Positions 40,208 through 59,297 of a stretch of DNA of 64,000 nt are shown here, piece by piece. Both the position numbers and the translations under genes were made by a program. Positions within the stretch are counted from its first letter, which is position 1. Each line of letters starts with the position of its first letter. The notes beneath the pieces were generated by a model. That model was given only the letters and a program-made list of their open reading frames with translations. It was not told the origin of the DNA and made no database searches. Source of the stretch: Marispirochaeta sp. (GTDB lineage: Bacteria; Spirochaetota; Spirochaetia; JC444; Marispirochaetaceae); contig CAXXFF010000002.1 in the NCBI GenBank assembly GCA_963676835.2, positions 1,856,001-1,920,000 on the forward strand. The letters run 5' to 3'.

Positions 40208-40939
40208 ATGATGGAGCTTGAAAACAGAGTTGCACTTATCACCGGTGGAGCGAGAGGTATTGGTGCTGCTATTGCAGAACTGTTTGTGGAACGGGGAGCC
40301 GCCGTTGTTCTTGCGGACGTAAACAAGGCAACGGTTGAAGAAACCGCTGCAAAACTTCGGGAAGGCGGGGCAAAGGCTCTTGGTCTTCAGGTGGATATTA
40401 CCGACCGCAGCTCGGTTAAGGTAATGGTGGATGCTGCCATAAAAGAGTATGGAAAAATCGATATTCTTATTAATAATGCCGGTATTGCTAACTTTAAAAA
40501 TGCAATGGAAGGTACCGATGATGAGTGGGACAAGGTTATTCTTGTGAACATGACAGGTACTCAGAATGTGTGTAAGGCTGTCATTCCTCACATGGAAAAG
40601 GCCGGCTACGGCAAGGTTGTTTCCATCTCATCCATGGCTGCCAGGGTAGGTGGGTTAAAGGTTGCAACGGACTACACTTCTTCCAAGGCAGGAGTAATCG
40701 GAATAGCAAAATCCTGGGCCCGTTATGGTGCTTCAAGGGGCATACTTTCCAACGCCATTGCTCCGGGACCAACCGCTTCAGATATGGCAGCTGATAACTT
40801 TGATGTTTCTACCATGCCTCTGGGAAGAATCGGTCAGCCGAAAGATATTGCCTATGCGGCCCTGTTTCTTTCTTCCTATATGTCTGACTACATTACCGGA
40901 ATTACCCTGGATGTAAACGGCGGCCAGTATCTTCCCTGA
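40208..40939 (+). CDS. SDR family oxidoreductase
   Basis: TGGARGIG, NNAG, YTSSK. Confidence 0.9.
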   Translation: MMELENRVALITGGARGIGAAIAELFVERGAAVVLADVNKATVEETAAKLREGGAKALGLQVDITDRSSVKVMVDAAIKEYGKIDILINNAGIANFKNAMEGTDDEWDKVILVNMTGTQNVCKAVIPHMEKAGYGKVVSISSMAARVGGLKVATDYTSSKAGVIGIAKSWARYGASRGILSNAIAPGPTASDMAADNFDVSTMPLGRIGQPKDIAYAALFLSSYMSDYITGITLDVNGGQYLP

Positions 40940-41025
40940 TAATATGCCACACCATGACTGTCGTTTTATGATAGAATTGGGAGCTGTTTTTATACCTTTC
41001 TGATGAAAGAAGGAGTGAATTGGAT

Positions 41026-42345
41026 ATGAGAGTAAATATGCGGGAGAGCAAGTTTGACCGCAACGGTGTTGTGGAGAGGATGGTGGGAAGCACCCCGCTG
41101 CCCAAAATGATAAAGGTTCGGCAGAAGCTGAACGACGAGAAACTGAACGATATCCCCGGTGAGATCAAAAAGCAGATCAACCTGGATAAAATCAAGGCAA
41201 CAGTAAAACCGGGAATGTCCATCGGAATAACCGTAGGAAGCCGGGGTATTGCCAATCTTGCCTTACTGGTAAAAGAAACTGTAGCAGCACTGAAAGCGCT
41301 TGGTGCAGAACCTTTTGTCTTTCCTGCCATGGGAAGTCACGGAGGTGGAAATGCTCAGGGGCAGAAAGAGATGATTGAAGGCTTCGGTGTTACCGAAGAG
41401 TACATCGGATGTCCCATCAAAGCCACCATGGAAGTTGTTCAGATTGCTACCCTTGATGACGGCCGCCCTGTTTACCTCGACAAATATGCATCCGAGGCCG
41501 ATGGCTATATTCTTCTCGGCCGGGTAAAGGCTCATACCGCCTTCCGGGGCGAGTATGAGAGCGGAATGCTCAAGATGCTTGCTATCGGGGCGGCGAAGCA
41601 CGAGGGTGCACTTGCCTGTCACAGTCAGGGATTCCGCAAGATGGCGGAAAATGTTCCAGCCTATGGAATGGCTATGCTGAACAACTCCAACATGCTGTTC
41701 GGTCTGGCTATTATTGAAAATGCCCATGATGAAACAAACCGGATTATTGCTCTTACCAAAGAAGAGATACCGGTAGAAGAGCCTAAACTGCTTATTGAAG
41801 CAAAAGAGAAGATGGCTCAGATCTATTTTGATGATATTGATGTCATGGTTGTAGATGAAGTAGGTAAAAACCACTCCGGCGACGGAATGGACCCCAATAT
41901 AACCGGAAGCTACCAGACTCCCCAGGCTCAGGGACCTCCCAACGTATACCAGTATGTAGTTCTTGGCCTGTCCGAAGAGACCCACGGAAATGCCATGGGA
42001 GTCGGTATGGCTCATTTTACCACCAAACAGGTATTTGACGAGGCCGATTACGATACCATGTATCCCAACGCCCTTACTGCCCGGGTTGTTCTTGCGGTAC
42101 GGATGCCCATGGTTCTGAATACCGATAAGCTTGCAATTCAGGCTGCTACTTATGTGGTAAACGGTAATGGATACCTTGAGCCGAGAATTGTCCGGATTAA
42201 GAGCTCCAGTCATGTTGGTGAAATCTGGATTTCCGAATACATGCTGGAAGAGGCAAAGAAAAATCCCAATATCGAGATAATCGGCGAAGCTGAAGATTTT
42301 GATTTCGATTCAAAAGGTGAGCTGAAAGAGAAGGGCGGACACTGA
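41026..42345 (+). CDS. Lactate racemase (LarA)-like / DUF362-related putative nickel-pincer 2-hydroxyacid isomerase
   Basis: GSRGIAN, PAMGSHGG, RVKAHTAF, ESG..KM..IG..K, GKN.SG.GMDPNITG, HGNA.GVG. Confidence 0.75.
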   Translation: MRVNMRESKFDRNGVVERMVGSTPLPKMIKVRQKLNDEKLNDIPGEIKKQINLDKIKATVKPGMSIGITVGSRGIANLALLVKETVAALKALGAEPFVFPAMGSHGGGNAQGQKEMIEGFGVTEEYIGCPIKATMEVVQIATLDDGRPVYLDKYASEADGYILLGRVKAHTAFRGEYESGMLKMLAIGAAKHEGALACHSQGFRKMAENVPAYGMAMLNNSNMLFGLAIIENAHDETNRIIALTKEEIPVEEPKLLIEAKEKMAQIYFDDIDVMVVDEVGKNHSGDGMDPNITGSYQTPQAQGPPNVYQYVVLGLSEETHGNAMGVGMAHFTTKQVFDEADYDTMYPNALTARVVLAVRMPMVLNTDKLAIQAATYVVNGNGYLEPRIVRIKSSSHVGEIWISEYMLEEAKKNPNIEIIGEAEDFDFDSKGELKEKGGH

Positions 42346-42859: not shown

Positions 42860-44155
42860 TTAATCGATAAAACCGGCCAGCCTTGGCAGGAAGAGAACGA
42901 TTTCGGGGATGTAGGTAATTGCAAATACCGCAGCCATTTCCGCTGCAACAAAGGGCATTACCTTGGGAACCATTTTCTCTACTGAACACTTGGCAATGGG
43001 GACCGCTGTGAACAGACATACACCTACCGGAGGAGTGGTAAGACCGATGTTGAGGTTTACCAGCATGATAAGTGCAAAGTGAAGAGGATGGATTCCATAT
43101 TCCATTGCCAGGGGCAGCAGAATGGGGGTAAGCATGATAACCGATGCAGAGATTTCCATTACCATTCCCATAAAGAAGAAGAGAATGTTAACCGCAAACA
43201 GGAAGAGATACTTGTTTGAGATCAGGGAAGTAATGAAGTTTGCAACGTGCTCGGGGATATGCTCAATGGTAAGAACCATACTGAAAAGCTGGGAACAGGA
43301 TACAATCAGAAGGATTGTCGCACCAACTTTTCCCGCATCGATCAAACTGTCGATCATAAGCTTCATACTAAGGGTTTTATAGTAGAAAACACCAACCAGG
43401 AAGGCATAGAGACAGGCGATTGCTGCAGCTTCTGTGGGAGTAAAAATACCGGACAGAATACCACCGATAATAATTACAGGAACCAGCAAGGCTACGATTG
43501 AACGGCGAACTATTCCCGCAGCTTCCTTGAAGGGTATGCGCTCAGTTCTTTTGGGGTGATTGTACTTGATGGCATATACATACGCCAGAATCATAAGCGA
43601 GAGAGCAACTGCAAGACCGGGAAGGAAGCCACCCACAAAGAGTGCTCCAACTGATTCACCGGTTACTGAGCTGTAGATAACCATGATAATACTCGGCGGG
43701 ATAATCGGTCCGATTACTGAAGACGCCGTGGTTACCGCCGCTGCATATTCGGCTGAATATCCTTCCTCTTTCATTGCAGGAATCAGGATGGAACCGATAG
43801 CTGCGGTATCCGCAACGGCCGCACCGGTAAGACCTGCAAATGCGATACTTACAACGATATTAACCTGTGCAAGGGCTCCCCGAACACGGCCGACCAGCAG
43901 CTGTGCAAAGTTAACCAGGTCACGGGTAATACCGGTATGGTTCATAATGTTACCGGCAAGCACAAAGAAGGGCAGAGCCAGAAGAACATAGTTGTCTATA
44001 CCACCGAAGAGCTTGGAAGCGATTGCAACCAGAGGCAGTCCCTGAAAAAAGATCAGGTAAAGAAGTGGTACCAGTCCAAGTACAAAGGCGATAGGTACGC
44101 CGATGACAAGGAGAAAAACGAATAATACTACCATTATCTGTACTGAAATATGCAT
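42860..44155 (-). CDS. dctM: TRAP transporter large permease DctM
   Basis: LALPFFVLAG, GAAVAD, PIIPPS, TPTEA, TPPVG. Confidence 0.93.
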   Translation of the reverse strand: MHISVQIMVVLFVFLLVIGVPIAFVLGLVPLLYLIFFQGLPLVAIASKLFGGIDNYVLLALPFFVLAGNIMNHTGITRDLVNFAQLLVGRVRGALAQVNIVVSIAFAGLTGAAVADTAAIGSILIPAMKEEGYSAEYAAAVTTASSVIGPIIPPSIIMVIYSSVTGESVGALFVGGFLPGLAVALSLMILAYVYAIKYNHPKRTERIPFKEAAGIVRRSIVALLVPVIIIGGILSGIFTPTEAAAIACLYAFLVGVFYYKTLSMKLMIDSLIDAGKVGATILLIVSCSQLFSMVLTIEHIPEHVANFITSLISNKYLFLFAVNILFFFMGMVMEISASVIMLTPILLPLAMEYGIHPLHFALIMLVNLNIGLTTPPVGVCLFTAVPIAKCSVEKMVPKVMPFVAAEMAAVFAITYIPEIVLFLPRLAGFID

Positions 44156-44169
44156 AGTATACCTCTATC

Positions 44170-44685
44170 CTAAAAATCGTGTCCGCCGGAAAGAAGATAC
44201 TCTTTGTCATCTCCCTTCTCGGTAAGCAGGCCGGTGGTAAAGTACATCATGTGAATCAGCATGAACAAAGACCCGATGGGTATGTTCAGCTTAACCCAGG
44301 TCATCGGGATGCGGATGATCGCACCAAGCTGACGGCGGGCAACATATGCGGCTTTAAAACCGTAGATAATGACAACCACGAGGAACAGGATAATAGTGAT
44401 ATATCCTATTACAAGGGAGAGTTTTCTGAGTGCAGGTTTCATGCGGGTAATAAAAAATTCGATACCGATATGAGCACGCTCTTTCATTGCAACCGAAGCT
44501 CCAATGTATCCCATGCCGATCAGCATCCAGCGCATAAGTTCCTCATTCCACGAAAGGGACTGCAAAAAGACCCTGAAAAAGACGCCGAGAATCGCGAGGA
44601 AGGTTACCCCGAGAACGTACGCCAGCAGGATCCACTTGGCGGCTATATTGGTATAGTCGCTGGCTTTCTTCAAATACTGAATCAT
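44170..44685 (-). CDS. dctQ: TRAP transporter small permease DctQ
   Basis: WNEELMR, HIGIEF, 4 TM segments. Confidence 0.88.
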   Translation of the reverse strand: MIQYLKKASDYTNIAAKWILLAYVLGVTFLAILGVFFRVFLQSLSWNEELMRWMLIGMGYIGASVAMKERAHIGIEFFITRMKPALRKLSLVIGYITIILFLVVVIIYGFKAAYVARRQLGAIIRIPMTWVKLNIPIGSLFMLIHMMYFTTGLLTEKGDDKEYLLSGGHDF

Positions 44686-44737
44686 TCTGTTTTCTCTCAA
44701 TAAGTAAGTGTGGGAGACTCTTTATACAAGAGTAAGG

Positions 44738-44769
44738 GCAGTCCGGTCCTTTTGGGGACCGGACTGCCA
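44738..44769 (-). terminator. Intercistronic hairpin after dctP
   Basis: GGCAGTCCGGTCC-TTTTGG-GGACCGGACTGCC. Confidence 0.65.
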
Positions 44770-44808
44770 TATATCCTTCTACAGGATGTATTTAACTAAG
44801 AGGTGAGA

Positions 44809-45963
44809 TTAGCGTCTCCAGCCTGCAGAGGCTTCAGCGCGCTTAACATCTTCTACGAAAGCATCAACAAGTTCCGCTCCGAGTTCGCCCTTCAGGTAAT
44901 CGATAACTGCGGGCTGTGCAACTTCCTGGAACTTTGCCTTTTCTCCAGCTGTGGGGAAGTAAACTTCCATCTGAGCTGCAACTTCTTCGAACTTAACAAT
45001 GTTGGAAACCATTTTCTCAGCAGTGTTGTTAGCTTCTACAGAAAGACGGGCACCAGCAAGGAGAACCTGCTGTACACCGATGGGAAGGCTGTTGAATTTG
45101 TCAGCGTTCATTACCATAACGTTTTCAGACCATACGTGGCCGTCCATTGTCAGGTATTTCTGAACTTCCTGGATTTTTCCGAGGAAGATGGAAGAAACGG
45201 GGTTCTCTTCACCGTCTACAACACCAGTCTGGAGAGCAGTGTAGAGCTCGTTCCATGCGATGGGTACTGCAGATGCGCCGAGAGACTCAACCATTTTTAC
45301 GTATACGGGGCTCTGCATAACGCGGAACTTGATTCCCTTCATGTCTGCGGGAGTCTTGATGGGGCGTACGTTGTTGGTGAAGTTTCTCCAACCATTCTGA
45401 CCCATTCCGAGGTATTTCAGGCCGGTTTCTTTTTCCATGTTGTCCATGAGGTCTGCCCATACTTTGCTTTCCCGGAAGAAAGTAGTAGTGATGTCGTCAT
45501 TGGCGAACAGGTAAGGAATGGTGAAAATCTGGAAGGGAGCATAGAAAGTTCCCAGTGAACCGGTTCCGATGTTGATGTCCAGTGAACCGTTCTGTACCAT
45601 TTCACAAGTTTCGCGGTAGCTACCGAGAGATCCGGCACCGAAAAGCTCAAGCTGAACCATTCCGCCAGTCTGAGATTCTACGAAGTCCTTGAACATAACT
45701 GCCATGGCATGCTCGGGATCGGGTACGTTAGCTGATTTGGGCCAAAGTACGGGGTCGTCATAAGACATGCGCAGAGTAATGGGTTTTGAAGGCATTGTCA
45801 TGTCAATGAATGCTGGGATTGCGCCTTCAGAGGAGGACATTGCGGGGGCTGCTGCTGCAGGTGCTGCTGCTGCGGGTGCTTCCTTAGCGCAGGAAAAAGC
45901 CAGCAGTGACAGTGTTACCAAGAGAGCAATGGTGAGCTTTCCTAACCATTTTCCTTTTGTCAT
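44809..45963 (-). CDS. dctP: TRAP substrate-binding lipoprotein DctP
   Basis: Lipobox LAFSC, Ala/Pro linker, NGWR, FRVM, ELYTALQTGVVDGEEN. Confidence 0.92.
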   Translation of the reverse strand: MTKGKWLGKLTIALLVTLSLLAFSCAKEAPAAAAPAAAAPAMSSSEGAIPAFIDMTMPSKPITLRMSYDDPVLWPKSANVPDPEHAMAVMFKDFVESQTGGMVQLELFGAGSLGSYRETCEMVQNGSLDINIGTGSLGTFYAPFQIFTIPYLFANDDITTTFFRESKVWADLMDNMEKETGLKYLGMGQNGWRNFTNNVRPIKTPADMKGIKFRVMQSPVYVKMVESLGASAVPIAWNELYTALQTGVVDGEENPVSSIFLGKIQEVQKYLTMDGHVWSENVMVMNADKFNSLPIGVQQVLLAGARLSVEANNTAEKMVSNIVKFEEVAAQMEVYFPTAGEKAKFQEVAQPAVIDYLKGELGAELVDAFVEDVKRAEASAGWRR

Positions 45964-46245: not shown

Positions 46246-46923
46246 ATGAAAGATAGCGAACAACGCCAGACAAAGCATGAAATCTATACCACCCTCTTTG
46301 ACCGGATAGTGCACAATAAATATCCCGAGGAAACCTGGCTCAGGGAGGATATTCTTGCTGCAGAGTTTAATGTCTCACGTTCTCCGGTACGGAGTGTGCT
46401 GCGGGATCTCGAACAGGATCATCTCATAGAGATTCTTCCCAAACGAGGAGCCAGGGTATTTCCTTTTACCGCTGATGACCTTGAGGATATTTATGAGCTG
46501 AGGAGAGATCTTGAACTCCTTGCCATGAAACGCTCCGCCCACTCTCTCAGTATCCAGAGGCTCCTCGAGCTGAAAGCCGATATTCTCGGGATGAAAGGAA
46601 TAGTGCATCCTGTTGAGCATGCCAGAGCGGACAGCGCTCTCCATTCCTATATTATCGAATCCTCCGGCCGCCGGCGCCTTATTCTTATGCTTAAGCAGCT
46701 GTACCGGCTTACCCAGACTTTCCGGGAGCTCAGCCTTATAAATGAAACCTCACGTAATGCAACTATCGACGAACATATAAATCTGATAGATGCATTGTGT
46801 ATCAGGGATCTGGATAAAGCGGCAGAACTGTTAACAAGGCATATTGAAAACAGTAAAATTCGGGTGCTGACTCTGGTTATTCAGGGGAAAATGAAGGAGT
46901 CAGGCTCTAAGGTCACCGGCTAA
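46246..46923 (+). CDS. GntR family regulator (paralog of 37161-37817)
   Basis: VSRSPVR, FPFTADDLEDIYE shared with the paralog. Confidence 0.9.
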   Translation: MKDSEQRQTKHEIYTTLFDRIVHNKYPEETWLREDILAAEFNVSRSPVRSVLRDLEQDHLIEILPKRGARVFPFTADDLEDIYELRRDLELLAMKRSAHSLSIQRLLELKADILGMKGIVHPVEHARADSALHSYIIESSGRRRLILMLKQLYRLTQTFRELSLINETSRNATIDEHINLIDALCIRDLDKAAELLTRHIENSKIRVLTLVIQGKMKESGSKVTG

Positions 46924-47849
46924 ATAACATTCACCTCTATTGATGCTTTCTGCAATAATGTAACTGCCCTGTCTACTGTTTCCGAATCTGCTGCGGGAAT
47001 TGCATCCCCCGGGTTTCTGCGGCCGAGGTGTCCATATTTTTCTGTTCCAAGGGTATGGTGGGGGAGCAGATCAACCTGACTGATGTTTAAGTCTGAGAAC
47101 AGGCGAATCATAGCGTTCAGTTCGTCATCTGTGGTATTTATCTCGGGAATAAGGGGAATCCGTATTCTGATTTTTGTTCGGTACTTCCCCATGGCGGTTT
47201 GAAGGTTGTTAAGAATAACTGAGTTGGTTTTTCCGGTGTATTTTTTATGGGTAGCAGGAACTGCTGTTTTAATGTCAAAAAGCAGTAAACTTGCAGTTCG
47301 GCAGACTTCCTGCATTACATCCCATGCTCCATCTCCGCAGGTATCTACGGCGGAATGAACTCTATGGTCTTTCAATTTCTCAAGCAGGGAGAGGGTAAAC
47401 TCCGGCTGAAACAGTGGTTCGCCGCCTGAAAGTGTAACCCCTCCTCCGGATTCCTCGAAAAATGGTTTGTCTTTAATAAGCTCATCAAATATTTCTTCCA
47501 CGCTAACTGTTTTGCCTGCAACACTTAACGCATCTGTTGGACATTTTAATGGGGCTTCATGCAGGAAGAAATCGGAGGTTCTGGCTCTCTGAGGGATTAG
47601 TACTTTTCCTTCTTTGTCTTTTTTTACGCTTGCATTAACTCCTGTGCTGGAGTAGAGGGTGCAATCCGGGAGGCATAGAGTTCTGTTATACATCAGTTCC
47701 GGGAAGCTGTTCTGACTTTCCGGATTCGCACACCAGATACACCGGAGAGGACAACCTTTCAGAAAAATTGTGGTGCGTATGCCGGGGCCGTTGTGAAGGC
47801 TGAAAGTCTGGAGGGCAAATATGCAGCCCTTTGGTGTGCTATGTGACAT
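46920..47849 (-). CDS. Glycyl-radical-enzyme activating enzyme (radical SAM), variant
   Basis: GCPLRCIWCANPES (CxxxCxxC), SGGEP, VDTCG, FDIK, LLPHH; HNGPG instead of HDGPG. Confidence 0.92.
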   Translation of the reverse strand: MSHSTPKGCIFALQTFSLHNGPGIRTTIFLKGCPLRCIWCANPESQNSFPELMYNRTLCLPDCTLYSSTGVNASVKKDKEGKVLIPQRARTSDFFLHEAPLKCPTDALSVAGKTVSVEEIFDELIKDKPFFEESGGGVTLSGGEPLFQPEFTLSLLEKLKDHRVHSAVDTCGDGAWDVMQEVCRTASLLLFDIKTAVPATHKKYTGKTNSVILNNLQTAMGKYRTKIRIRIPLIPEINTTDDELNAMIRLFSDLNISQVDLLPHHTLGTEKYGHLGRRNPGDAIPAADSETVDRAVTLLQKASIEVNVI

Positions 47850-47858
47850 TCCTGCTGC

Positions 47859-50225
47859 CTAAAACTGCGACATTTCTGCCCTGGATATTATTTCGTTCTG
47901 AACTTCCATGCTCAGCTGGTGCCAGTTTGTCACGTAGGCGGCTACACGAATAAGCAGGTCCGGGTATTTTTCCGGGCTTTTTTGGGCATCCTTCAAAATA
48001 GATGGGTCGATCACATTAAACTGAATATGAAATCCACCGAGGCGAAAATAGGTACGGATAAGGTCTTCAAGGTTTTTCTGTCCGTTTTTTGTGGAGATCA
48101 AACCTTTGTTCAGCTTCATGTTCAGCAGGGTTCCGTTTATTGCCTTATGGTGAGGCAGTTTTGCCTGGCTGGATAAGATGGATGTTACCTCCCCCTGCTT
48201 AAGGTACTGAGATGGAGAGCTTGCATCCGACAGGGGTGCAGCCGCTTGTCTTCCGTCCGGGGTTGCCCCTACCAGCTTTCCGAAGCCTACATGAGAGGTA
48301 AGGCTGTAGAGGCTCACAGTGTAGAGACCTCCCCAGATATCCCTATAATCTTCTGCAGTGTCACAACAGAGATTGAACAGATTGACTGCAATGGTGTTGG
48401 AATTCTCCGAATCACTGCCGAAGCGGTCTGTTTTGTTTAAAAGTGTCTGCCGAAGAACCTCTTCATTCATAAAATTGTTATTGATTGTCTTTACCAGATC
48501 CTGGAGAGAAATTATCTGCTTTTCATAGACAAACTCTTTCAGAGCTGACAGTGAATCACATACCGTGGCGAATCCAACCATCTGCACACCGGTATGATAG
48601 GAAACGGCTCCGCCGTTGTTTACATCTTTGCCGCTTTGCATGCAGCCCTGCACTAGAAGAGATTCATAGGGTTCCGGCCAAAGATCCCGGTGAGCCTTCT
48701 GCAGGCAGGTAACTCCTTCAACAACGGAAGCGAAAAGAGAGGATAACTGCGCTTTAAAAGCCTGCATAAAAAGGGAATAGTCCGTGAGTTCCGCCGGTTC
48801 TCCCGTTGTCGGTCCCAATTGTCTCCCGGTGAGGGGATTTCGCCCGTTATTCAGGGTGAGTTCCAGGCATTTCCCCAGATTAATCAGTGCAGCATCTGCC
48901 CAGGTCCAGGTTTTACCCTGGACGCCGTATTCTACACAGCCGATAAAAGCCCATTCGCTTAAGGCGGTGTCTTCTGGTAGACCTGCCTCAATATACATTT
49001 TGCTTCCTATATGATAGTTGAAGAATTTTGGCTTGGAGTTTTCTGCCACCAGCGCCACCGAGGCACTGTAAAATGCAGGATCCATTTCCTCTGTCCAGAG
49101 AAGGCCGATATCCGGCTGATACAGATGGACTTTTTTCTCCGCTTCAAGAAAAAGAAAGGAGAGCTCATCGGTATCATCATTTCCGTTGGCAGTGAGGCCT
49201 CCCAGCTGAACCGGCTGGCCCACGGGAAAACCGCCATAGTTTCCAGCTGCAGCATTATTGTAAAGCTTGAGGATGTCGTTTGTTTTAAAGAAAAAGCTGA
49301 CCAGCAGATTCACCGCATGGTCTCTGTTCAGTTTTCCCCTGTCCAGGTCCCTTTGATAGTAGGGCTGCAGCATAGACGCAATCCGGCCCAGGGTAACCCC
49401 GTAACCGTTGGAATCGATATAGCAGATTACATGAGTAAGCCATATACTCTGCAGGGCGGATTCAAAGCTGTCCGGGGGATTCCAGGGAACCTTCCGGCAG
49501 TTTTCTGCAATGGCTTTCAGCTCTTCTGCCCGAGTGGTATCTGCTGTTTCAGACAGTGATTCTGCAAGATGAGCGTATCTTTCTGCGAAACTGCGCACCG
49601 CTCGGGTAATAATAAGCACGCTTTCATAAAACTCTGCGCTTTCCGGAGCCAGGCTGCTGCTTTTCAGATAAGTCTCCGCTTCGGAATCGAGACCTGAAAA
49701 ACCTTTCTTCAGAATCAGGGCATAGTCGGGCAGAAAGTGTCCGGTTCCGCAGGTAAGCATGTTTTCTGCAGAGAATAATCCCTCTTTCCGCATCTGGAGA
49801 ATCTGTTCCGGGATATCAGACAGCCCGCGGTCTCTGAGGGTTCTACCTTCCCACCATGGCAAAAGCTGGCGAAGCTCCTGTTTAACCTCATCTGAGACGG
49901 CGAATTTATCCCCCGGCCGTGTTTCGTAGCTGTCCAGTTCGTTAAGAATGAAATCGACTCCCCCTTCGGGAAAGATTGGTGCAGAAACCGGTTCCGGCCC
50001 GAGGTTTCCTGCCATAAGCTCCCAGGGTTGAATATAGATTGTCATTTTTTCAAGGATATCGCGAAGCGCATAGGCTCTGAGGAGAAGCGGTGATACTTCT
50101 TCATTTTTCCGGTAGGTTTCGGTAATGATTCGCGCCCGTTCGGAGGTGAGGGACGGTTTCAGCAGCCTGGAGAGATAATAATTACGTGTTTCCTGCAGAC
50201 GAATCTCATTTGCAAACCAGCTCAT
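47859..50225 (-). CDS. Glycyl radical enzyme (PFL2-type) homolog with Ala at the radical site (candidate alanyl-radical enzyme), 788 aa
   Basis: Cys loop GCVE, GATPDGR, NGTLLN, HIQFNV, RVAAY; the real start ATG overlaps the upstream TAA at 50225. Confidence 0.92.
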   Translation of the reverse strand: MSWFANEIRLQETRNYYLSRLLKPSLTSERARIITETYRKNEEVSPLLLRAYALRDILEKMTIYIQPWELMAGNLGPEPVSAPIFPEGGVDFILNELDSYETRPGDKFAVSDEVKQELRQLLPWWEGRTLRDRGLSDIPEQILQMRKEGLFSAENMLTCGTGHFLPDYALILKKGFSGLDSEAETYLKSSSLAPESAEFYESVLIITRAVRSFAERYAHLAESLSETADTTRAEELKAIAENCRKVPWNPPDSFESALQSIWLTHVICYIDSNGYGVTLGRIASMLQPYYQRDLDRGKLNRDHAVNLLVSFFFKTNDILKLYNNAAAGNYGGFPVGQPVQLGGLTANGNDDTDELSFLFLEAEKKVHLYQPDIGLLWTEEMDPAFYSASVALVAENSKPKFFNYHIGSKMYIEAGLPEDTALSEWAFIGCVEYGVQGKTWTWADAALINLGKCLELTLNNGRNPLTGRQLGPTTGEPAELTDYSLFMQAFKAQLSSLFASVVEGVTCLQKAHRDLWPEPYESLLVQGCMQSGKDVNNGGAVSYHTGVQMVGFATVCDSLSALKEFVYEKQIISLQDLVKTINNNFMNEEVLRQTLLNKTDRFGSDSENSNTIAVNLFNLCCDTAEDYRDIWGGLYTVSLYSLTSHVGFGKLVGATPDGRQAAAPLSDASSPSQYLKQGEVTSILSSQAKLPHHKAINGTLLNMKLNKGLISTKNGQKNLEDLIRTYFRLGGFHIQFNVIDPSILKDAQKSPEKYPDLLIRVAAYVTNWHQLSMEVQNEIISRAEMSQF

Positions 50226-51025
50226 TATTCTGTTCCTTTTTTTTCGGTATGTTTCGTTTCCCGGGAGGCAAAGAATTCTGCCAGCCTTTTTTGAGTATCT
50301 CCCGAAGCCATGGCGGCGGAGGAGGCTGCAGCTTCGGCAAAACACATCTCTGTCTCTTTCAGGGCTGAGGCAGTGTTTATGCACTGCTTTATCATGGCTA
50401 TGGATATGTGACTGTTGGCAGATACTGATGTATTGAACTGCTGAATGTGTTCGGAAAGGTCTTCTTCGGTCCCGTAAAAATTGATCAAGCCCGCAGCGAA
50501 GGCTGTTTCTGCAGAAATAGTTCTGCCCGTGAAAAGCAGTTCCTTTGCGAAAGGTGCCCCGGTTCTTAAAGGGACACGGAAAGTGCCTCCCCAGCCGGGA
50601 ATAAGCCCAAGCCCTGCTTCGGGCATGGCAAACCTGGCGGAAGTTTCGGCGTAGATAAAGTCGCAGGCAAGGGCAAGTTCCAGCCCTCCGCCGGCTGCGA
50701 TTCCCCGGACCATAGCCACTACGGGAATTTCAAGGGACTGCAGTCTATTAAATACTGCATGCCCTCTTTTTACCCAGGGGCGAATACTCTCATGATCTAT
50801 CTCCTGGAGGGCTTTCAGATTTGCTCCTACCAGAAAATACTTTGGTTCACTGCTTTCAATGTACAGAACCCTGATATCCGGAACTGCTGCAGCAGCCTTT
50901 TCTATGGCATTTTCCAGCATCTCCAGAGATTCATAATCAAGGGTCGGGGGCTTGCCTGGAGGATCAACGGATAAAAGAATCCGTCCGGTCTGGCCTGAAA
51001 TTTCAAGGCTGATCACTGTTTTCAT
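50225..51025 (-). CDS. Enoyl-CoA hydratase/isomerase (crotonase)
   Basis: GGGLELALACD and MPEAGLGLIPGWGG (both catalytic Glu present). Confidence 0.9.
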   Translation of the reverse strand: MKTVISLEISGQTGRILLSVDPPGKPPTLDYESLEMLENAIEKAAAAVPDIRVLYIESSEPKYFLVGANLKALQEIDHESIRPWVKRGHAVFNRLQSLEIPVVAMVRGIAAGGGLELALACDFIYAETSARFAMPEAGLGLIPGWGGTFRVPLRTGAPFAKELLFTGRTISAETAFAAGLINFYGTEEDLSEHIQQFNTSVSANSHISIAMIKQCINTASALKETEMCFAEAAASSAAMASGDTQKRLAEFFASRETKHTEKKGTE

Positions 51026-51035: not shown

Positions 51036-52577
51036 TCAGCTGAAAAAACGGGTATCCATGGTTTTCAGATTTGATGAGATAAGCGGGCGGAAATCCATGT
51101 TGGCGAGAATATCTCTCTCAAGATCTATGCCGGGAGCAATTTCTGTCAGCATCAGTTCTCTATTATGCAGACTGAAGACCGCCCGCTCCGTGACATACAG
51201 AACCGGCTGTTTACGCTTGTCTGCATAGCCGGCACTGAAAGTACGCTGGGCCACTCCGGAAACAAACTTCCTGATTTCACCTTCATGCTCTATGGTAATC
51301 TTTCCGTTACCGCTTGTGCATTTAAGCCCCTTTGCGGTAAAGGTGCCGCAGAACACTACTTTTCCGGCATTCTGGGTAATATTGATAAAACCGCCGCATC
51401 CTGCCAGCATACTGCCGACCTTGCTTGAGTTCACATTTCCGGCGCTGTCCACCTGGGCCATGCCCAGGAAGGCAAGATCCAGCCCGCCACCGTCATAAAA
51501 ACTAAACTGTGAATCCATGGGAATGATTGCTTCGGGATTATAGGCCATTCCGAAAACCACGCCTCCCGCCGGTCGACCGCCGATGGACCCCTGTTCGACT
51601 GTCAGGGTCAGCTGGTCTAAATAGCCATCTTCTGCTGCAACCGCGGCGACTCCGTCGGGAACGCCATAGCCAAGATTAACCACTGCACCGGAAAAAAGTT
51701 CCTCCGCTGCTCTACGGGCAATAATTTTTTTCGGTCCCGCCGGGAGGGGCGGAATGGTTCCCAGAGGAGTTTTGACTCCACCGTTAAAGGCGGGTTCATA
51801 GCTGTGGAGACAGGTCATTGTCTGTTCCGGGTCTACTACAATGTTATCTACGTATATGCCGGGGACAATTACCTCCCGGGGATTGAGAGTTCCCGGCTCT
51901 GCCAGGTATTTCACCTGGGCTATAACGGTTCCGCCGCTGTTTTTTACCGCCTGGGCAATGGCACGGGCTTCAAGCATCGGACCATCTTCCTCGCAGGTAA
52001 TGTTTCCTTTGAGGTCTGCTGTTGTGCCTCGAATAAAGGCTGCATCTATATGAAAGCGGGGAAAAAAGAGCCATTCCTCCCCCTTGATCTGAATTACCTC
52101 TACCAGATCCTCTGTTGTTATCGTATTGGTTTTTCCCCCCTCCAGACGGGGGTCGACATAGGTATTAAGTCCGATTTTGGTTATAACCCCCGGGGTTTTT
52201 CCTGCCACGGCATGATACATATGGGATAAAACGCCCTGGGGAAAGTTGTATGCTTCCACCTGATTGGACAGGATCAGCCTGCCCATGGCAGGGGACATGC
52301 CGAAGTGTCCGGAAATATCCCGTTTGACCAGGCCGGGGTGGGCGAGGAAATCAATTCCTGTCCCTTCCCTGTTGCCGATACCGGTAGAGTGGATAATGGT
52401 AATCCCTGAAGGAGTTGAATTATCCCGGTAATGCTCTCCCAGAGTCCGGAGCAGGAGTGAGGGTTCACACACTCCGCCACCGGACCCGTGAATGGCAAGG
52501 GTCATTCCGTTTTTAATTTTTGAAGCAGCCTCCATTGGCGTAAGCACTTTTGTCTTCATTCTTTTATTCTCCTCCAT
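51036..52577 (-). CDS. Family I acyl-CoA:acetate CoA-transferase (YdiF/propionate CoA-transferase type)
   Basis: YNFPQG, GLNTYVDPR, NLGYGVP, catalytic VEQG, GCGGFINI, YVTER. Confidence 0.9.
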   Translation of the reverse strand: MEENKRMKTKVLTPMEAASKIKNGMTLAIHGSGGGVCEPSLLLRTLGEHYRDNSTPSGITIIHSTGIGNREGTGIDFLAHPGLVKRDISGHFGMSPAMGRLILSNQVEAYNFPQGVLSHMYHAVAGKTPGVITKIGLNTYVDPRLEGGKTNTITTEDLVEVIQIKGEEWLFFPRFHIDAAFIRGTTADLKGNITCEEDGPMLEARAIAQAVKNSGGTVIAQVKYLAEPGTLNPREVIVPGIYVDNIVVDPEQTMTCLHSYEPAFNGGVKTPLGTIPPLPAGPKKIIARRAAEELFSGAVVNLGYGVPDGVAAVAAEDGYLDQLTLTVEQGSIGGRPAGGVVFGMAYNPEAIIPMDSQFSFYDGGGLDLAFLGMAQVDSAGNVNSSKVGSMLAGCGGFINITQNAGKVVFCGTFTAKGLKCTSGNGKITIEHEGEIRKFVSGVAQRTFSAGYADKRKQPVLYVTERAVFSLHNRELMLTEIAPGIDLERDILANMDFRPLISSNLKTMDTRFFS

Positions 52578-52604: not shown

Positions 52605-53909
52605 TTAGACGAACAATTCCGGCATGAATAATTTGGGAATGCCAAGGGTAATGGAGGGAAAAACAATAATAAGAACAAGAACCGCCAACATAGCCAGCAG
52701 GAATATACCAATCTCCTTAAGAGACTTCATGGCATTGATGCCTGCGATCTCACTTGATATAAGCAGGCAGAGTCCGTAGGGCGGAGTAACCAGACCAAAG
52801 GCCAGAGAGATAACGCCTACAATAGCGAAGTGTAGAGGATGGATTCCGACATGGGCGGCAATGGGTGCGAGCAGTGGTCCAAGAATGACAATGGCTGGAA
52901 CCGAATCGAGAAAGGTTCCGACCAGAAGGAAGATCCCGACGAAAATCATCAGCATCAAGGTTGGAGATGTTGTTATACCTCCAAGAAGGCCAACCAGAAA
53001 GTTTGGAATCTTATAGTAGGCAAGGACCCATCCGTATATCGATGCGGTACCAACGGCAAACAGTACAATCGCGGCAAGCTGCGCTGTATCCAGCATGAGC
53101 TGGATAAATTTATTGAACGAGACCGTGCGGTAGATAAACATTCCCAGTATAAGAGAGTAGATTACGGCAACCAGTGAAGCTTCTGTGGGGGTAACAAAGC
53201 CGAAAACTATACCGCCGACAATAATTATCGGAGTAAAGAGAGCGAGAATTGCTCCCTTGAAGCTGGCTACGAACTCTTTCAGGCTGAAACCGGATTCCCT
53301 CGGATAGCCTCGCTTGAGGGCGAAATAGAGCACCAGAGCCATCTGGAAGAGAGCGATCAATACTCCGGGAACAAAGCCGGCAAGAAACAGTCCGGCAACG
53401 GAAGTGCTCATTACACCTCCCCAGACCACCATGGTTATGCTGGGGGGAATAATGTTTCCCATAACTGCGGAACAGGCGGTAACAGCAACGGAAAACTGCT
53501 TGTCATACCCTTCCTTTTCCATTGCGGGTATAAGAACCGAACCGATACCCGCGGCATCAGCATTGGATGAGCCGGAAATTCCTGCGAAGAGCATGCTTAC
53601 TGCCACGTTTACATGTCCAAGACCCCCGGGAAGCGGTCCGACAATGGAACGGGAAAAGCGTATGAGACGGTCGGTTATCTTGGCTTCATTCATTACAACT
53701 GCAGCAAGCAGGAAGAAGGGAATCGACAGCAATATAAAGGAACCGTACTGCACCATCATGCGCTGAAGCAGCATAAGCGGGGTAACCCTCGGGGTTAATA
53801 TAAGAATCGGGATGACGGCGAAGGCCAGGGTAAAACTGACCGGAACGCGGAGTATAATAAGCACAATAAGTAGAGTGAACATTATGGCAGCAACAGTGGC
53901 AGCAGTCAT
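52605..53909 (-). CDS. dctM: TRAP transporter large permease DctM
   Basis: SGSSNAD, IIPPS, TPTEA, TPPYG. Confidence 0.93.
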   Translation of the reverse strand: MTAATVAAIMFTLLIVLIILRVPVSFTLAFAVIPILILTPRVTPLMLLQRMMVQYGSFILLSIPFFLLAAVVMNEAKITDRLIRFSRSIVGPLPGGLGHVNVAVSMLFAGISGSSNADAAGIGSVLIPAMEKEGYDKQFSVAVTACSAVMGNIIPPSITMVVWGGVMSTSVAGLFLAGFVPGVLIALFQMALVLYFALKRGYPRESGFSLKEFVASFKGAILALFTPIIIVGGIVFGFVTPTEASLVAVIYSLILGMFIYRTVSFNKFIQLMLDTAQLAAIVLFAVGTASIYGWVLAYYKIPNFLVGLLGGITTSPTLMLMIFVGIFLLVGTFLDSVPAIVILGPLLAPIAAHVGIHPLHFAIVGVISLAFGLVTPPYGLCLLISSEIAGINAMKSLKEIGIFLLAMLAVLVLIIVFPSITLGIPKLFMPELFV

Positions 53910-54460
53910 TTGTTGTTTTCTCCTTCATCCTTGGAATTTTCATTGTGATGAATGGTGTACGAATCAGACATGTGATGTTCCGATAGTCTCCGGGCAAAGA
54001 TATCTCTGTATAGTTGTTGCAGAAGGAAGAGCAGCCATGAGAATCCTGCAATCGGAACAGAGGCATAGAGAAACCCAAGATTTATGCCCGTGAGTTCTGA
54101 TGTCTGGATAAGCCCCCACTCTTTAAAGAAACGGTAGCCGTATCTTACGAATACATAGGTAACGGTGAAGGTCACAATGTAATAGATGATCTTCAGGAGC
54201 ACGTCGAACCAGACTGGAAGATTTTCACCGAAAATATCGATGAAAAAATGACGTGAATCACGAACTCCAATGATCGAGCCGATAAAGACCATCCATATCA
54301 ATGAAAAATTCGTTACTTCCAGGGTCCAGAAAAAACGGGGAATAAAGGGAATATATCTGCCGGCAACGGTCAAGCCGACTGCGGCGAGCAGTACGAACAT
54401 CAAAAAGATCAATAAGCCGGTAAGGAACCGTGAATAGAGATCGATAAGCTTAGAGACCAC
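53906..54460 (-). CDS. dctQ: TRAP transporter small permease DctQ
   Basis: WTLEVT, WMVFIG, HFFID; 4 TM segments. Confidence 0.87.
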   Translation of the reverse strand: MVSKLIDLYSRFLTGLLIFLMFVLLAAVGLTVAGRYIPFIPRFFWTLEVTNFSLIWMVFIGSIIGVRDSRHFFIDIFGENLPVWFDVLLKIIYYIVTFTVTYVFVRYGYRFFKEWGLIQTSELTGINLGFLYASVPIAGFSWLLFLLQQLYRDIFARRLSEHHMSDSYTIHHNENSKDEGENNK

Positions 54461-54481
54461 AGCATTGCTCCTTATATGGAA

Positions 54482-54512
54482 AAAGCAGGCGGAATTTACT
54501 CCGGCCTGCTTT
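54482..54512 (-). terminator. Intercistronic hairpin after dctP
   Basis: AAAGCAGGC...GCCTGCTTT. Confidence 0.6.
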
Positions 54513-54531
54513 AAGATTAGTTGGTTTCAGA

Positions 54532-55548
54532 TCAGTCCATGGACTGGATTTTCTCAAATATATCGAGAGCACCAACCTCTTTCGCATACTCCCGGACAAC
54601 AGGAAGCGCGCGCTCCTGGATTATCTTATTGTCAGCATCGCTCAACTCAATGACTTTCAGCCCATGATTCTTCTCCAGGTTGGCGATTATCTCCTGGGCT
54701 TCGGCAACTTCGGTTTTACGGTGCCAGCGGCCTGCATCAAGCCCTGCTTTAAGAATGGCGTCCTGCATATCCTGGGGAAAACTCTCCAGACGGGGCTGTG
54801 AGAAAGCGAGAATCCTGGTTGTAATCTGATGGCGGGTCATAACATAGTAGGGTGCAACTTCGTAGAACTTCATACCTTCCAGACCGGCGGGTTCATTCTC
54901 GAGGCCGTCTACAACGCCGGTTTTAATTGCGTTATATACCTCCATGTAATCAAGAGGAGTGGGGTTGACGCCGACAGCTTCAAATACCTTTGCATGCAGA
55001 GGCGAGCCCTGAACCCGCAGATCGATCTTTCCAAGGTCATCTACAGATTTGATAGGCTGATTAAGAATAAGGCTGCGGGCTCCGCCACCACCGTATCCGA
55101 TGAAGTTGACACCTTTTTCGATCATTGTGTTTCTGATCGGATCAAGGGCGCCGGCTTCAAGGGCGTTTTCCCAGTTTGACAGACTCTTGAAAAGAAATGG
55201 TGCATCGATAACCGGGGCGGTTTTGTCCCAGGTTGCAGCCCATGCGGGGGAAACAACGGCAAAGTCTACCGATACTCCCTGCATCATAAACTCAAGCATG
55301 TCTTTCTCGGTTCCGATTGAACCGGAATGGTGCAGCTCGAATTCGACATCGACGGAACCGTCGTAATACTCATTGAAGAGTTCGACAAACTTTTCCATGG
55401 CACGATAGTAAACGTGACCTTCAGGCAGCATAACGCCTCCAACGAGGGTTATCTTTTCCGGTGCAGCGCCTGAATCCTGTGCGCCGCCGGCAAACAGTCC
55501 CAGTGACAGTACCGACATAACCAGAACCAATACAATAAATTTTTTCAT
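54532..55548 (-). CDS. dctP: TRAP substrate-binding protein DctP
   Basis: Signal peptide, LRVQG (carboxylate-binding Arg), EVYNAIKTGVVDGLEN, KFYEV; RBS GGGAGG before ATG 55548. Confidence 0.92.
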   Translation of the reverse strand: MKKFIVLVLVMSVLSLGLFAGGAQDSGAAPEKITLVGGVMLPEGHVYYRAMEKFVELFNEYYDGSVDVEFELHHSGSIGTEKDMLEFMMQGVSVDFAVVSPAWAATWDKTAPVIDAPFLFKSLSNWENALEAGALDPIRNTMIEKGVNFIGYGGGGARSLILNQPIKSVDDLGKIDLRVQGSPLHAKVFEAVGVNPTPLDYMEVYNAIKTGVVDGLENEPAGLEGMKFYEVAPYYVMTRHQITTRILAFSQPRLESFPQDMQDAILKAGLDAGRWHRKTEVAEAQEIIANLEKNHGLKVIELSDADNKIIQERALPVVREYAKEVGALDIFEKIQSMD

Positions 55549-55592
55549 AGATCCTCCCTTGCGAATTGACTTCACGGCAGTTACCGTATTTA

Positions 55593-55609
55593 ATTGGAAC
55601 GTTACAATA
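55593..55609. promoter_or_regulatory. Putative LacI operator upstream of dctP
   Basis: ATTGGAACGTTACAATA; its exact reverse complement is at 57595-57611. Confidence 0.75.
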
Positions 55610-55790
55610 GAAACGATATCAGCCATGTTTTCAGCTGTCAAGAAAATAGTTGATATCAGCCGGATTTTGGGGTATAACAGGAAACCTGTGTCGATGTACT
55701 GCTGGTTTTAGTGAAATTAATTTAAAAACCTGTTATTTTCACCCCTAAGCCGGTTTTATCGTTCCAACTCTGACAGGCACGGCGGGAAAT

Positions 55791-56807
55791 ATGAAAAGAG
55801 GAAAGCGGGTTACTATCAAAGATATTGCAGAGCATGCGGGGGTATCAAAATCAACGGTATCGCTGGTTCTGCAGAACAGTCCACTGATTCCGGAGGCAAC
55901 CTCTGAGAAGGTCCGGAAATCCATTGACGCCCTTGGCTATGTCTATAACAGGGCGGCTGCCAACCTCAGAACCAAACGATCCCATATAGTGGGAGTTATT
56001 ATCTCTGATATCGGCAACCCTTTTTTCAGCGAGCTGGTGACCACCATAGAAAACAGCCTTGAGCCCCATGGGATTGTGGTAATGCTTACCAATATTGCCG
56101 AAAGTCCGGAACGGCAGCGCAAGGCAATTTCCACGCTTATGGAGCATAACGTGGACGGACTTTTCCTGAGTCCCGCGAGAAACTCAACCGTCGATGATCT
56201 TGGGCCCCTGAAAAACAGCTCCATTCCGGCTGTGTTTGTAAACCGCTATGTTGCTGATTACGCCTGTAACTATGTGGGCGGTGATAATATCCTTGGTACG
56301 CGGATGGCTGTGGAGTATCTGCTTGATCAGGGCCACCGGGAGATAGCCTTTATTGGAGGGGATGAGGGGTCATCCTCCCGGAAAGAGCGGGTACAGGGCT
56401 ATCTGGATGCTTTTGCAAAATATGGGATTGATCCCCCGGAGGGCTTGAATATACATACCACCGGTAACCGTAAGGGGGGGTACGCCGGGGTCCGTAGTCT
56501 GCTTGAGTCCGGAGTCCGGCCTACTGCCGCTTTCTGCTATAACGATGTTATAGCTCTGGGTGTTATGCTGGGGCTGGAATCCAAGGGGATTCATCCGGGG
56601 GGGGATTTTGCAGTTTTCGGCTTTGATGATATTTCCGAGGCGGAACTCTGGACGCCGTCTCTTTCTACGGTGGCGATATCTCCCGAGACTCTGGGAAAGC
56701 GTGCGGCAGCACTGATGATTGAGAAAATAGAAAACAACAGCACAAATGAAAGAATCCTTGTTTCTCCCCGCCTTATGATCCGCGAGTCTTCCGTGGGCAG
56801 AAAATAA
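55791..56807 (+). CDS. LacI family regulator
   Basis: TIKDIAEHAGVSKSTVS, LGYVYNRAAANLR, NPFF. Confidence 0.93.
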   Translation: MKRGKRVTIKDIAEHAGVSKSTVSLVLQNSPLIPEATSEKVRKSIDALGYVYNRAAANLRTKRSHIVGVIISDIGNPFFSELVTTIENSLEPHGIVVMLTNIAESPERQRKAISTLMEHNVDGLFLSPARNSTVDDLGPLKNSSIPAVFVNRYVADYACNYVGGDNILGTRMAVEYLLDQGHREIAFIGGDEGSSSRKERVQGYLDAFAKYGIDPPEGLNIHTTGNRKGGYAGVRSLLESGVRPTAAFCYNDVIALGVMLGLESKGIHPGGDFAVFGFDDISEAELWTPSLSTVAISPETLGKRAAALMIEKIENNSTNERILVSPRLMIRESSVGRK

Positions 56808-56844: not shown

Positions 56845-57576
56845 TTAATACATAAACAGACCGCCGTTCACATCAATGGTGGCACCGGTGGTAAAATCGT
56901 TTTCAATAAGATATTTGACCGCCTGGGCAATATGAATGGCCTGGCCGTTTCTTTTAAGGGGTGTATTTTCCCTGAAGGTTTTCATCTTTTCCGGGGTGGA
57001 AACCTTTTCATGGAAAGGTGTTTCTATAACCCCCGGGGCAACAGCATTGACCCGTATTTTCGGAGCCAGTTCAGCGGCAGCACCACGGGTAAAAGTATCG
57101 AGGGCTCCCTTGCAGGCACCATAGATTGTCGCCGACGGCGCGCCGTGCCGCATGGCAATACTTGTCATGTTGATAATAACCGGATCATCTCCTTTTTCCA
57201 GCAAGGGAACACAGAGGGAGGTTATTTTCATTGTTGAAAAAGTATTCAGAGAAAAGGTCTCTATCATAAAGTCCCAGTCGAGTTCGTTAATCGGCTGACG
57301 GTGAATAAGCCCTCCGGCATTGTTTACCAGAACATCCACCACGGGGAATAATTTTGCGCATTCAGCTACAAAGCGTTCACATTCCTCCGGTTTGGACAGG
57401 TCAGCCTGAATCAGGTGGGCTTTGCCGCCTTTAGCCTCCACATCTGCGGCCACTTTTTCAGCCGGCGCTTTCGATGAGTAGTAGTGAACAATAATTTCAT
57501 TTTCAGGAGCAAGCAGCCGTGCGGTGTCTGCACCAATACCCGTACTTGCTCCTGTAATAATAATTTTTTTTCCCAT
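56845..57576 (-). CDS. SDR oxidoreductase, resembles DEH (uronate) reductases
   Basis: TGASTGIG, NNAGGL..R, YGACK, PGVIETPFH. Confidence 0.85.
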   Translation of the reverse strand: MGKKIIITGASTGIGADTARLLAPENEIIVHYYSSKAPAEKVAADVEAKGGKAHLIQADLSKPEECERFVAECAKLFPVVDVLVNNAGGLIHRQPINELDWDFMIETFSLNTFSTMKITSLCVPLLEKGDDPVIINMTSIAMRHGAPSATIYGACKGALDTFTRGAAAELAPKIRVNAVAPGVIETPFHEKVSTPEKMKTFRENTPLKRNGQAIHIAQAVKYLIENDFTTGATIDVNGGLFMY

Positions 57577-57594
57577 ATAAGCTCCTTGAGAATG

Positions 57595-57611
57595 TATTGT
57601 AACGTTCCAAT
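57595..57611. promoter_or_regulatory. Putative LacI operator upstream of the SDR
   Basis: TATTGTAACGTTCCAAT, the same site as 55593-55609 inverted. Confidence 0.75.
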
Positions 57612-57851
57612 AAGAATGTACCCCATCAAGGATGATTTGTACAAGGGAAAAAACAGCGAGAATTCAATACAGGTGTGATGTAAAAGGAGGGAGGGCCGGG
57701 CATGCATAACGCGTCGTTTGCGCGCTGAGACGGTGCACCGCCCCGTCTCAAAGAAGGAGTGCCCTGCAATGCATCCCACCTGGAGGCGTTTTGGCCTGGA
57801 ATAAGGAGGCGGTGCAGTGCACCGCCTGTGCTGATGTCCGGCTTTTTGCTG

Positions 57852-59201: not shown

Positions 59202-59297
59202 CTGCCGCTCCTTTTTGCTTGTTGTTGTAAGTTCAGTTATAAAAGTAATCCCTCCGGCTTACGCGGAGGGATTGAGCGCCGGCTGAGCCGGCGTGTA

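Follow-up and report, generated by a model that had tools for sequence, protein, structure and literature searches.

Hundreds of proteins homologous to glycyl radical enzymes (GREs) in which the radical position is occupied by Ala, Ser, or Thr were described by Fu et al. in 2024 (JACS 146:29645, PMC11528403), with 17 alanyl (ARE), 21 serinyl (SRE), and 71 threonyl (TRE) radical enzymes counted in NCBI nr. C-alpha radicals were shown by electron paramagnetic resonance (EPR) in DgARE of Desulfoscipio geothermicus DSM 3669, in DaSRE, and in two FpTREs, each with its own activase, and the alanyl radical of DgARE gave a 1:3:3:1 quartet. These aminoacyl radical enzymes (AAREs) overturned the belief that glycine alone can hold a stable backbone radical. 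Here we analyze an ARE gene, its activase, and its operon in a 64,000-nucleotide stretch of the Marispirochaeta sp. genome (assembly GCA_963676835.2, contig CAXXFF010000002.1, positions 1,856,001 to 1,920,000 of the forward strand), hereafter the window, in whose coordinates positions are given. The Ala, Ser, and Thr variants that an earlier reading of this DNA (the original prediction) had mentioned proved to be the AAREs of Fu et al.

The activases of AAREs are side-chain specific, and the reactions of AAREs are stated to be unknown (PMC11528403). The same authors report no neighborhood common to AAREs and see the bottleneck in how few homologs occur in tractable organisms and how little the neighborhoods reveal. 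According to a June 2026 review, for no AARE is a function known, and our literature searches (aminoacyl radical enzyme; alanyl, threonyl, or serinyl radical from 2024 on) came upon no paper in which an ARE is given a reaction. Since both the class and the alanyl radical were published in 2024, the window gene adds one member to a known kind. Like DgARE, the encoded protein combines a GRE fold with Ala at the radical position, a conserved Cys, and an adjoining radical S-adenosylmethionine (SAM) activase, and is nearest to the GRE eliminases. Unlike DgARE, it belongs to a spirochaete of the Marispirochaeta group, its operon contains a tripartite ATP-independent periplasmic (TRAP) transporter, a CoA-transferase, and an enoyl-CoA hydratase, and its activase has lost most of the auxiliary-cluster Cys residues. 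This compact, conserved uptake-and-processing operon, found in five of the six genomes of the genus, eases the AARE bottleneck.

Alanine at the radical position

The ARE gene (47859–50225, minus strand), assigned from profiles, homologs, and trees, encodes a 788-residue protein with PFL-like and Gly_radical domains. Its reading frame is free of stops from the ATG (50223–50225) to the TAG (47859–47861), and the ATG shares one base with the TAA that ends the enoyl-CoA hydratase gene upstream. The frame could also begin earlier, at a GTG at 50384, but the 85% identical ortholog likewise has 788 residues and spans 100% of the query. The Pfam PFL-like profile (PF02901) covers residues 9–649 (profile positions 4–647 of 647, E = 7.8e-175) and Gly_radical (PF01228) covers residues 666–768 (E = 3.3e-24), which is the architecture of the GRE superfamily, a PFL-like domain followed by a C-terminal radical domain. 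The minus-strand codons CGT GTA GCC GCC TAC GTG encode R760-V761-A762-A763-Y764-V765, a loop that aligns with RVAGY of glycerol dehydratase (PDB: 1r8w). Ala763 (codon GCC, 47937–47939) stands where RVxG[FWY] has its radical Gly, and the glycyl radical cofactor of the C–O cleaving GRE eliminases is therefore absent. The Cys loop G429-C430-V431-E432 (48930–48941) contains the CXE motif, comprising the thiyl Cys and a Glu (PMC13450708); C430 is invariant in all 33 ARE rows of the alignment. His163 (49737–49739), aligned with His164 of B12-independent glycerol dehydratase, is His in 28 of these rows. Re-reading of the sequence bore out what the original prediction had stated about the stop-free frame of 788 codons, the RVAAYV loop with its GCC codon, and the intact GCVE loop.

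A single base separates GGC from GCC, and the evidence on this base comes from assembled contigs rather than raw reads, so that the alanine could be taken for a sequencing or assembly error or for a private mutation of the strain. A contig of run X1 (11,299 nt at a depth of 10.8), which may belong to the source assembly itself, has no differences over 47600–48600, and a contig of run X2, from a different study (196 nt, depth 3.7; the run covers 16 of 30 depth bins), spans 47858–48053 and differs only at 47970, with GCC kept. Base 47938, which the original prediction had singled out for a check, thus reads as GCC in contigs of two runs from two studies. Its other proposed check, whether close homologs share RVAAY, gave the stronger evidence. 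RVAA[YF] is present in all 30 C-terminally complete matches that rank above the first Gly-bearing one (44–100% identity; 120 matches listed), two further top-ranked matches ending before the radical loop. Within the genus, an ARE ortholog of at least 64% identity, always with RVAAYV, occurs in five of six genomes (the window genome and four congeners), and the ARE paralogs in these genomes bear Gly; the RVAAYV loop also recurs in many unrelated phyla. One ortholog, P0003, is assigned to M. aestuarii by its source. In two protein searches, the second seeded with the deep ARE P0038, Ala occupies the radical position in 109 of 226 cluster representatives, compared with the 17 AREs listed in 2024. 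On these comparisons, the alanine is neither a sequencing error nor a strain mutation, an explanation to which we assign next to no weight.

The gene might alternatively be an inactive relic, a GRE disabled by the Gly-to-Ala replacement and now decaying or non-catalytic, as the one-base step between the two codons and the view, held before 2024, that the Gly is essential would suggest. However, Ala is fixed in a clade of 54 members that uses all four Ala codons (GCT 15, GCC 12, GCA 5, and GCG 2 in 34 ARE loci), Cys430 and Glu432 are intact, a dedicated activase is kept under selection, and the alanyl radical of DgARE was shown experimentally (PMC11528403). Relative to the 85% identical ortholog of a Marispirochaeta metagenome-assembled genome (MAG; locus L001), the ARE has a dN/dS of 0.063, the activase of 0.122, the hydratase of 0.088, and the CoA-transferase of 0.039, values that are rough, because dS exceeds 1, but clear in direction. 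A second fixed difference is found next to the radical position, where almost all AREs have Val after the Tyr (RVAAYV) and Gly enzymes have Ser or Thr. Given that all close homologs share the Ala and that purifying selection acts on the gene, a dead GRE is very improbable, and the view of the original prediction that this is a functional non-glycyl enzyme gains support from the sequence comparisons. It is highly likely that the ARE is real, selected, and activatable.

The 54-member clade was recovered by FastTree from 247 GRE-family sequences and consists of 53 Ala-bearing rows and L003, the loop of which is RVAAYV (support 1.0, stem 0.20); the window ARE lies inside a spirochaete subclade of 11 rows (support 1.0). 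In the IQ-TREE phylogeny of 55 chosen rows, the main ARE clade comprises 23 rows (SH-aLRT 100). P0034 and P0035, with the loop RVAAYN, fall outside the main ARE clade in the FastTree phylogeny, beside Gly enzymes. A second origin of AREs, considered on account of this placement, is unsupported, given that IQ-TREE permits all 25 AREs, including these two, on one side of a branch. The hosts include Spirochaetota, Bacillota, Bipolaricaulota, Bathyarchaeia, Desulfobacteraceae, and others, and the Bipolaricaulota and Bathyarchaeia members fit the remark that AREs occur in candidate phyla of extreme environments (PMC11528403). No match named Desulfoscipio, the host of DgARE, appeared in either protein search or among the best 80 of 263 relatives kept in the genome scan.

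The AREs are not chemically uniform, because a deep subclade (P0038, P0040, and P0041) has neither the His nor the Glu: the position of His163 is Asn, and the Glu of CXE is replaced by Ser or Thr. Judged by these residues, the subclade probably catalyzes a reaction different from that of the window subclade. It is large, including also L010, L011, L017:8156-10552, and their relatives, with Cys loops such as GCVT. In one MAG, Firmicutes UBA3567, three AREs (L006, L010, and L017) occur along with Gly enzymes. Four threonyl-type homologs (RVATYS) were found on the metagenome contigs L111, L129, L141, and L146, and this TRE clade is nested among RVSGY enzymes.

The cognate activase

The activase gene (ARE-AE; 46920–47849, minus strand; 309 residues) starts 10 nt past the ARE stop, and its product matches TIGR02494 with 297.9 bits (cut-off, 174). 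The ARE is thus adjoined by an activase with an intact radical-SAM cluster motif, CX3CX2C (C33, C37, and C40; 47730–47753). This motif, GGE, and the overall fold are shared with PFL-AE (PDB: 3cb8 and 8fo0) and with the GRE activases that contain a ferredoxin insert. Alignments place Asp169 (HSAVDTCG; 47343–47345) at the equivalent of PFL-AE Asp104 and Asn20 (NGPGIR; 47790–47792) at the DGxGxR-loop position.

The activase sample consisted of 132 activase-like open reading frames from 161 loci, of which 102 that cover query positions 25–270 were kept and 30 partial ones dropped; each was labeled according to which radical residue the closest GRE-family gene encodes. The Asp169 column splits the classes perfectly, with Asp in all 26 ARE activases and both TRE activases and Glu in all 70 activases of Gly enzymes, which are of the same insert type. 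Four unlabeled Asp-bearing activases adjoin AREs or TREs that the label pattern overlooked. The window genome provides an internal control, as it holds both a Gly and an Ala enzyme–activase pair. Gly_radical has only two matches in this genome, the ARE and a canonical GRE of 782 residues (KVAGYA, GCVE), which lies with its own activase at about 963,247–966,527 of contig C2, and the activase of the latter has Glu at the position of Asp169, DGPGIR, and all eight auxiliary-cluster Cys. The original prediction had spoken of matching changes in the activase without specifying them; such changes are present, and the activase appears to be adapted to a non-Gly target, with Asp169 as the clearest mark.

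The activase tree unites the ARE activases in a single clade (27 rows, support 0.99) and places the TRE activases in a separate one, nested among Glu-bearing activases. An IQ-TREE phylogeny built without the Asp169 column yields two independent contrasts on well-supported branches and four on all branches, all of which agree, but a sign test on two contrasts cannot reach significance. Furthermore, PFL-AE, the activator of a Gly, also has Asp at this position, so that Asp alone does not determine specificity for Ala. Asp169 is, as far as the alignments go, a marker within the insert-type activases and not a sufficient determinant. In PFL-AE, Asp104 is a ligand of the active-site monovalent cation (K+), which also binds the SAM carboxylate (PMC10267522). 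Because the C-alpha hydrogen of L-Ala is on the face opposite the pro-S hydrogen of Gly (PMC11528403), a repositioned SAM would be a plausible need. The main text of PMC11528403 makes no mention of Asp or Glu. The Asp/Glu signature constitutes a simple falsifiable hypothesis for how activases distinguish Ala or Thr from Gly and, if true, would predict non-glycyl targets and offer a handle for re-engineering activases. The joint proposal that Glu-to-Asp replacement at the Asp104 equivalent arose at least twice, in the ARE and TRE lineages, helping to take the C-alpha hydrogen of an L-amino acid, and that the window operon represents the first readable AARE pathway, we consider unlikely.

Asp at this position was observed in the activases beside L141 and L146, in one near L129, and in a related activase on L158, where no RVATYS loop was seen. 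At L082:1720-7530, an ARE with the loop RVAAYV is followed by an Asp-type activase and then by a canonical Gly enzyme (KVAGYS, ACSE loop), the activase being flanked by one Ala enzyme and one Gly enzyme.

The window activase is also distinguished by Asn in the DGxGxR loop and by the retention of only three of eight auxiliary-cluster Cys. The Asn is confined to the spirochaete subclade (window, L001–L004, L081, and L082) and was found in none of the Gly-enzyme activases aligned, and the loss of auxiliary-cluster Cys is likewise lineage-restricted (window, L001, L002, and L081). In the window, the ferredoxin-like insert (activase residues 59–103; 47541–47675) keeps its three Cys in the pattern CCYGDLAC, whereas four insert Cys, the first three and the last, persist in the activases of L001, L002, and L081. 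In the usual two-cluster ferredoxin pattern, those four Cys would ligate one auxiliary cluster. One auxiliary [4Fe-4S] cluster thus seems to have been lost in the subclade of these four loci, with a further ligand gone in the window strain. At 47653, another contig of run X2 has C for T at a depth of 2, which is too low to trust; the resulting Tyr66Cys replacement would restore the third cluster ligand found in L001 and L002. A similar loss of insert Cys was observed in three Gly-enzyme activases (L019, L022, and L023).

Candidate chemistry and the uptake operon

The closest solved relative of the ARE is the B12-independent glycerol dehydratase of Clostridium butyricum (PDB: 1r8w, 1r9d), with E = 7.4e-145 for 1r8w over residues 22–784. 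The two proteins are similar in overall length and have the CXE motif in common, and their alignment pairs His163, Glu432, and Asp444 with His164, Glu435, and Asp447 of the dehydratase. In the latter, Glu435 deprotonates the C1 hydroxyl and His164 has been proposed to protonate the leaving C2 hydroxyl (PMC13450708); by alignment, His163 takes the place of this proton donor. The enzymes differ in the radical loop (RVAGYS in the dehydratase, RVAAYV in the window) and at several other positions, His281-Ser282 of the dehydratase corresponding to Tyr275-Gly276 and Tyr339 to a Phe, and glycerol dehydratase lacks the transporter and CoA context of the window ARE. CutC, HypD, PD, HpfG, IslA, HpsG, YbiW, and PflD also belong to the PFL-like division and have a CXE Cys loop, with PDB E-values of 1e-129 to 1e-86 against the window ARE; all of these eliminases and isomerases use Gly. 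The ARE is not a PFL equivalog, scoring 144.3 bits against TIGR01255 (cut-off, 994) and having a single Cys in the Cys loop.

The original prediction had read the GCVE loop as pointing to eliminase or dehydratase rather than PFL chemistry. C430-V-E432 does conform to the 1,2-eliminase motif, but this motif is common to all C–O, C–N, and C–S GRE eliminases and extends to the GRE isomerases (PMC13450708). We consider CXE-type chemistry, either eliminase or isomerase, probable and, within it, an eliminase-type reaction on a hydroxylated substrate, that is, dehydration, the most likely. A sulfonate (C–S) lyase was judged unlikely after inspection of the alignment by eye, a weak test, revealed no IslA-like Arg or Gln anchors.

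The minus-strand operon reads DctP-DctQ-DctM, CoA-transferase, hydratase, ARE, activase. Profiles identify the first three genes as TRAP transporter 1 (52605–55641: DctM 52605–53909, DctQ 53906–54460, and DctP 54532–55641). They are followed by a YdiF-like family I CoA-transferase with fused subunits (51036–52577, minus strand, 513 residues; PDB: 2ahu, E = 1.1e-133) and an enoyl-CoA hydratase of the crotonase family (50225–51025, minus strand, 266 residues), identified by profiles and PDB matches, the best of which are short-chain enoyl-CoA hydratase and 3-hydroxypropionyl-CoA dehydratase (E about 1e-31 to 1e-33). A LacI-family regulator (55791–56807, plus strand) is divergent from the operon and occurs at the same place in L001 and L002. 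At the other end, a GntR/FCD regulator (46246–46923, plus strand), found at the same place in L001, L002, and L081, is convergent with the activase gene, their 3' ends overlapping by 4 nt, and is followed by TRAP transporter 2 (42860–45963, minus strand: DctP 44809–45963, DctQ 44170–44700, and DctM 42860–44155), which is syntenic in close orthologs. The entire order, LacI, DctPQM-CoA-transferase-hydratase-ARE-activase, GntR, DctPQM, is the same in the window, in L001 (85% identity), and in L002 and L081 (64%).

The binding protein of TRAP transporter 1 retains the invariant Arg of TRAP binding proteins (R209). Its model, built from a 100-row alignment (pLDDT 92.8, compared with 39 for the single sequence), superposes best on 4ovp (Z 44.5, rmsd 1.2, 38% identity), and the next structural matches are sugar-acid binders such as DctPAm (PDB: 7bbr) and SiaP. 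This protein is open to ligand screening. Homologs begin to align at about residue 32–35, and Met32 is nearly invariant; because of this, the true start may lie about 31 codons downstream of the longest-ORF start.

Around other AREs, TRAP transporters (L003, L005, L010, L082, L090, L099, and L110), aldehyde:ferredoxin oxidoreductase (L005, L007, L018, L084, L085, and L105), and iron-dependent alcohol dehydrogenase (L005, L018, and L099) recur, together with GntR/FCD regulators, LarA-like proteins, 2-hydroxyacid dehydrogenases, short-chain dehydrogenases/reductases (SDRs), and KDPG aldolase. This pattern fits the uptake of organic acids and the handling of an aldehyde or oxo product.

Together, the operon and the match of His163 and Glu432 to the catalytic pair of glycerol dehydratase suggest that a hydroxy or sugar acid is imported and undergoes radical dehydration. 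In such a scheme, the activase would cleave SAM and remove the hydrogen from C-alpha of Ala763, so that the backbone would carry a stable alanyl radical, which in turnover would oxidize Cys430 to a thiyl radical that takes a hydrogen from the substrate; we infer these radical steps by analogy with DgARE, for which they are described in the literature. Glu432 and His163 would then act as the catalytic pair, as in glycerol dehydratase, in a radical 1,2-elimination that would dehydrate a vicinal-hydroxy substrate. This would be a hydroxy or sugar acid brought in by the co-transcribed TRAP transporter, and dehydration of such a vicinal-diol acid would give an oxo or aldehyde acid. From this oxo acid, or from the acid obtained by its reduction, the YdiF-like transferase could make a CoA thioester, which would pass to the enoyl-CoA hydratase for a dehydration as in the 3-hydroxypropionate-to-acryloyl-CoA routes. 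If this is true, the ARE product would enter CoA-dependent fermentation via the transferase and the crotonase. The redox enzymes that this scheme requires are absent from the operon; an SDR gene sits just beyond the LacI gene.

Taken as a whole, the reading of the gene as a functional ARE of the published AARE class that performs radical dehydration of a TRAP-imported hydroxy or sugar acid, with the CoA-transferase and hydratase acting downstream, has in our estimate a probability of roughly 0.6. Considered separately, a TRAP-imported carboxylate as the substrate is an evenly balanced prospect, and the placement of the CoA-transferase and hydratase downstream of the ARE is more tentative still.

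Besides the two points raised for Asp169, several observations weigh against this reading. Because CXE is common to C–N lyases, C–S lyases, and isomerases, dehydration is not the sole option. The ARE scores below every NCBIfam equivalog cut-off (HypD 486.7 against 1100, HpfG 461.1 against 1000, CutC 443.5 against 1050, and HpsG 439.3 against 1000) and below that of the PFL2-3 subfamily (626 against 678). The clade of the window ARE is only presumed to be the one that holds DgARE. Neighborhoods vary across the ARE clade; in L003 (62%) and L004 (58%), the conserved gene order was not found and no CoA-transferase or hydratase lies beside the ARE, and the link of these two genes to the ARE may be a local operon fusion. 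On the side of uptake, the binding protein is just 38% identical to its nearest solved relative. The ligands of 4nx1 and 4ovp would presumably be taluronate and mannuronate, that is, uronates.

The same observations bear on the possibility that the ARE is functional but has another chemistry, for example as an isomerase, as a C–N or C–S lyase, or on an unrelated small molecule, the CoA-transferase and hydratase merely sharing its transcript. The occurrence of CXE in all eliminase subclasses and in isomerases (PMC13450708) would accommodate this, as would the PDB matches to PflD (2e-122), YbiW (5e-110), and CutC (6e-129), which are nearly as strong as that to glycerol dehydratase, the lack of a CoA-transferase or hydratase at ARE loci below 64% identity, and the lack of a neighborhood common to AAREs (PMC11528403). 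On the other hand, the glycerol dehydratase triad has its aligned counterparts in His163, Glu432, and Asp444, a visual check found no sulfonate-anchoring Arg as in C–S lyases at the positions inspected, the hydratase stop overlaps the ARE start, and the gene order is retained down to 64% identity. We regard another chemistry as the leading alternative, of appreciable but clearly lower probability than radical dehydration of an imported acid.

The order of the genes allows a further variant, in which the ARE would act on a CoA thioester made by the CoA-transferase and hydratase from the TRAP-imported acid, a kind of substrate that the superfamily is not known to use. Transcription runs from the transporter through the CoA-transferase and hydratase to the ARE, and the hydratase and ARE genes overlap, as this variant would have it. 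It is nevertheless improbable: CoA esters are not among the GRE substrates named in the available part of PMC13450708, the ARE has the normal length of a GRE without an extra domain, and most ARE loci lack CoA-handling genes.

Flanking genes

Beyond the operon and the second transporter, the window is rich in sugar and sugar-acid genes at 30498–42345 and 56845–63708. These flanks encode three GntR/FCD regulators, two split transketolases, RpiB, an FGGY kinase, a transaldolase-like protein, and SDRs, as well as a LarA-N/DUF362-like protein and a fused E1 dehydrogenase. Synteny with L001 includes the genes for the SDR and the FGGY kinase upstream of the LacI gene.

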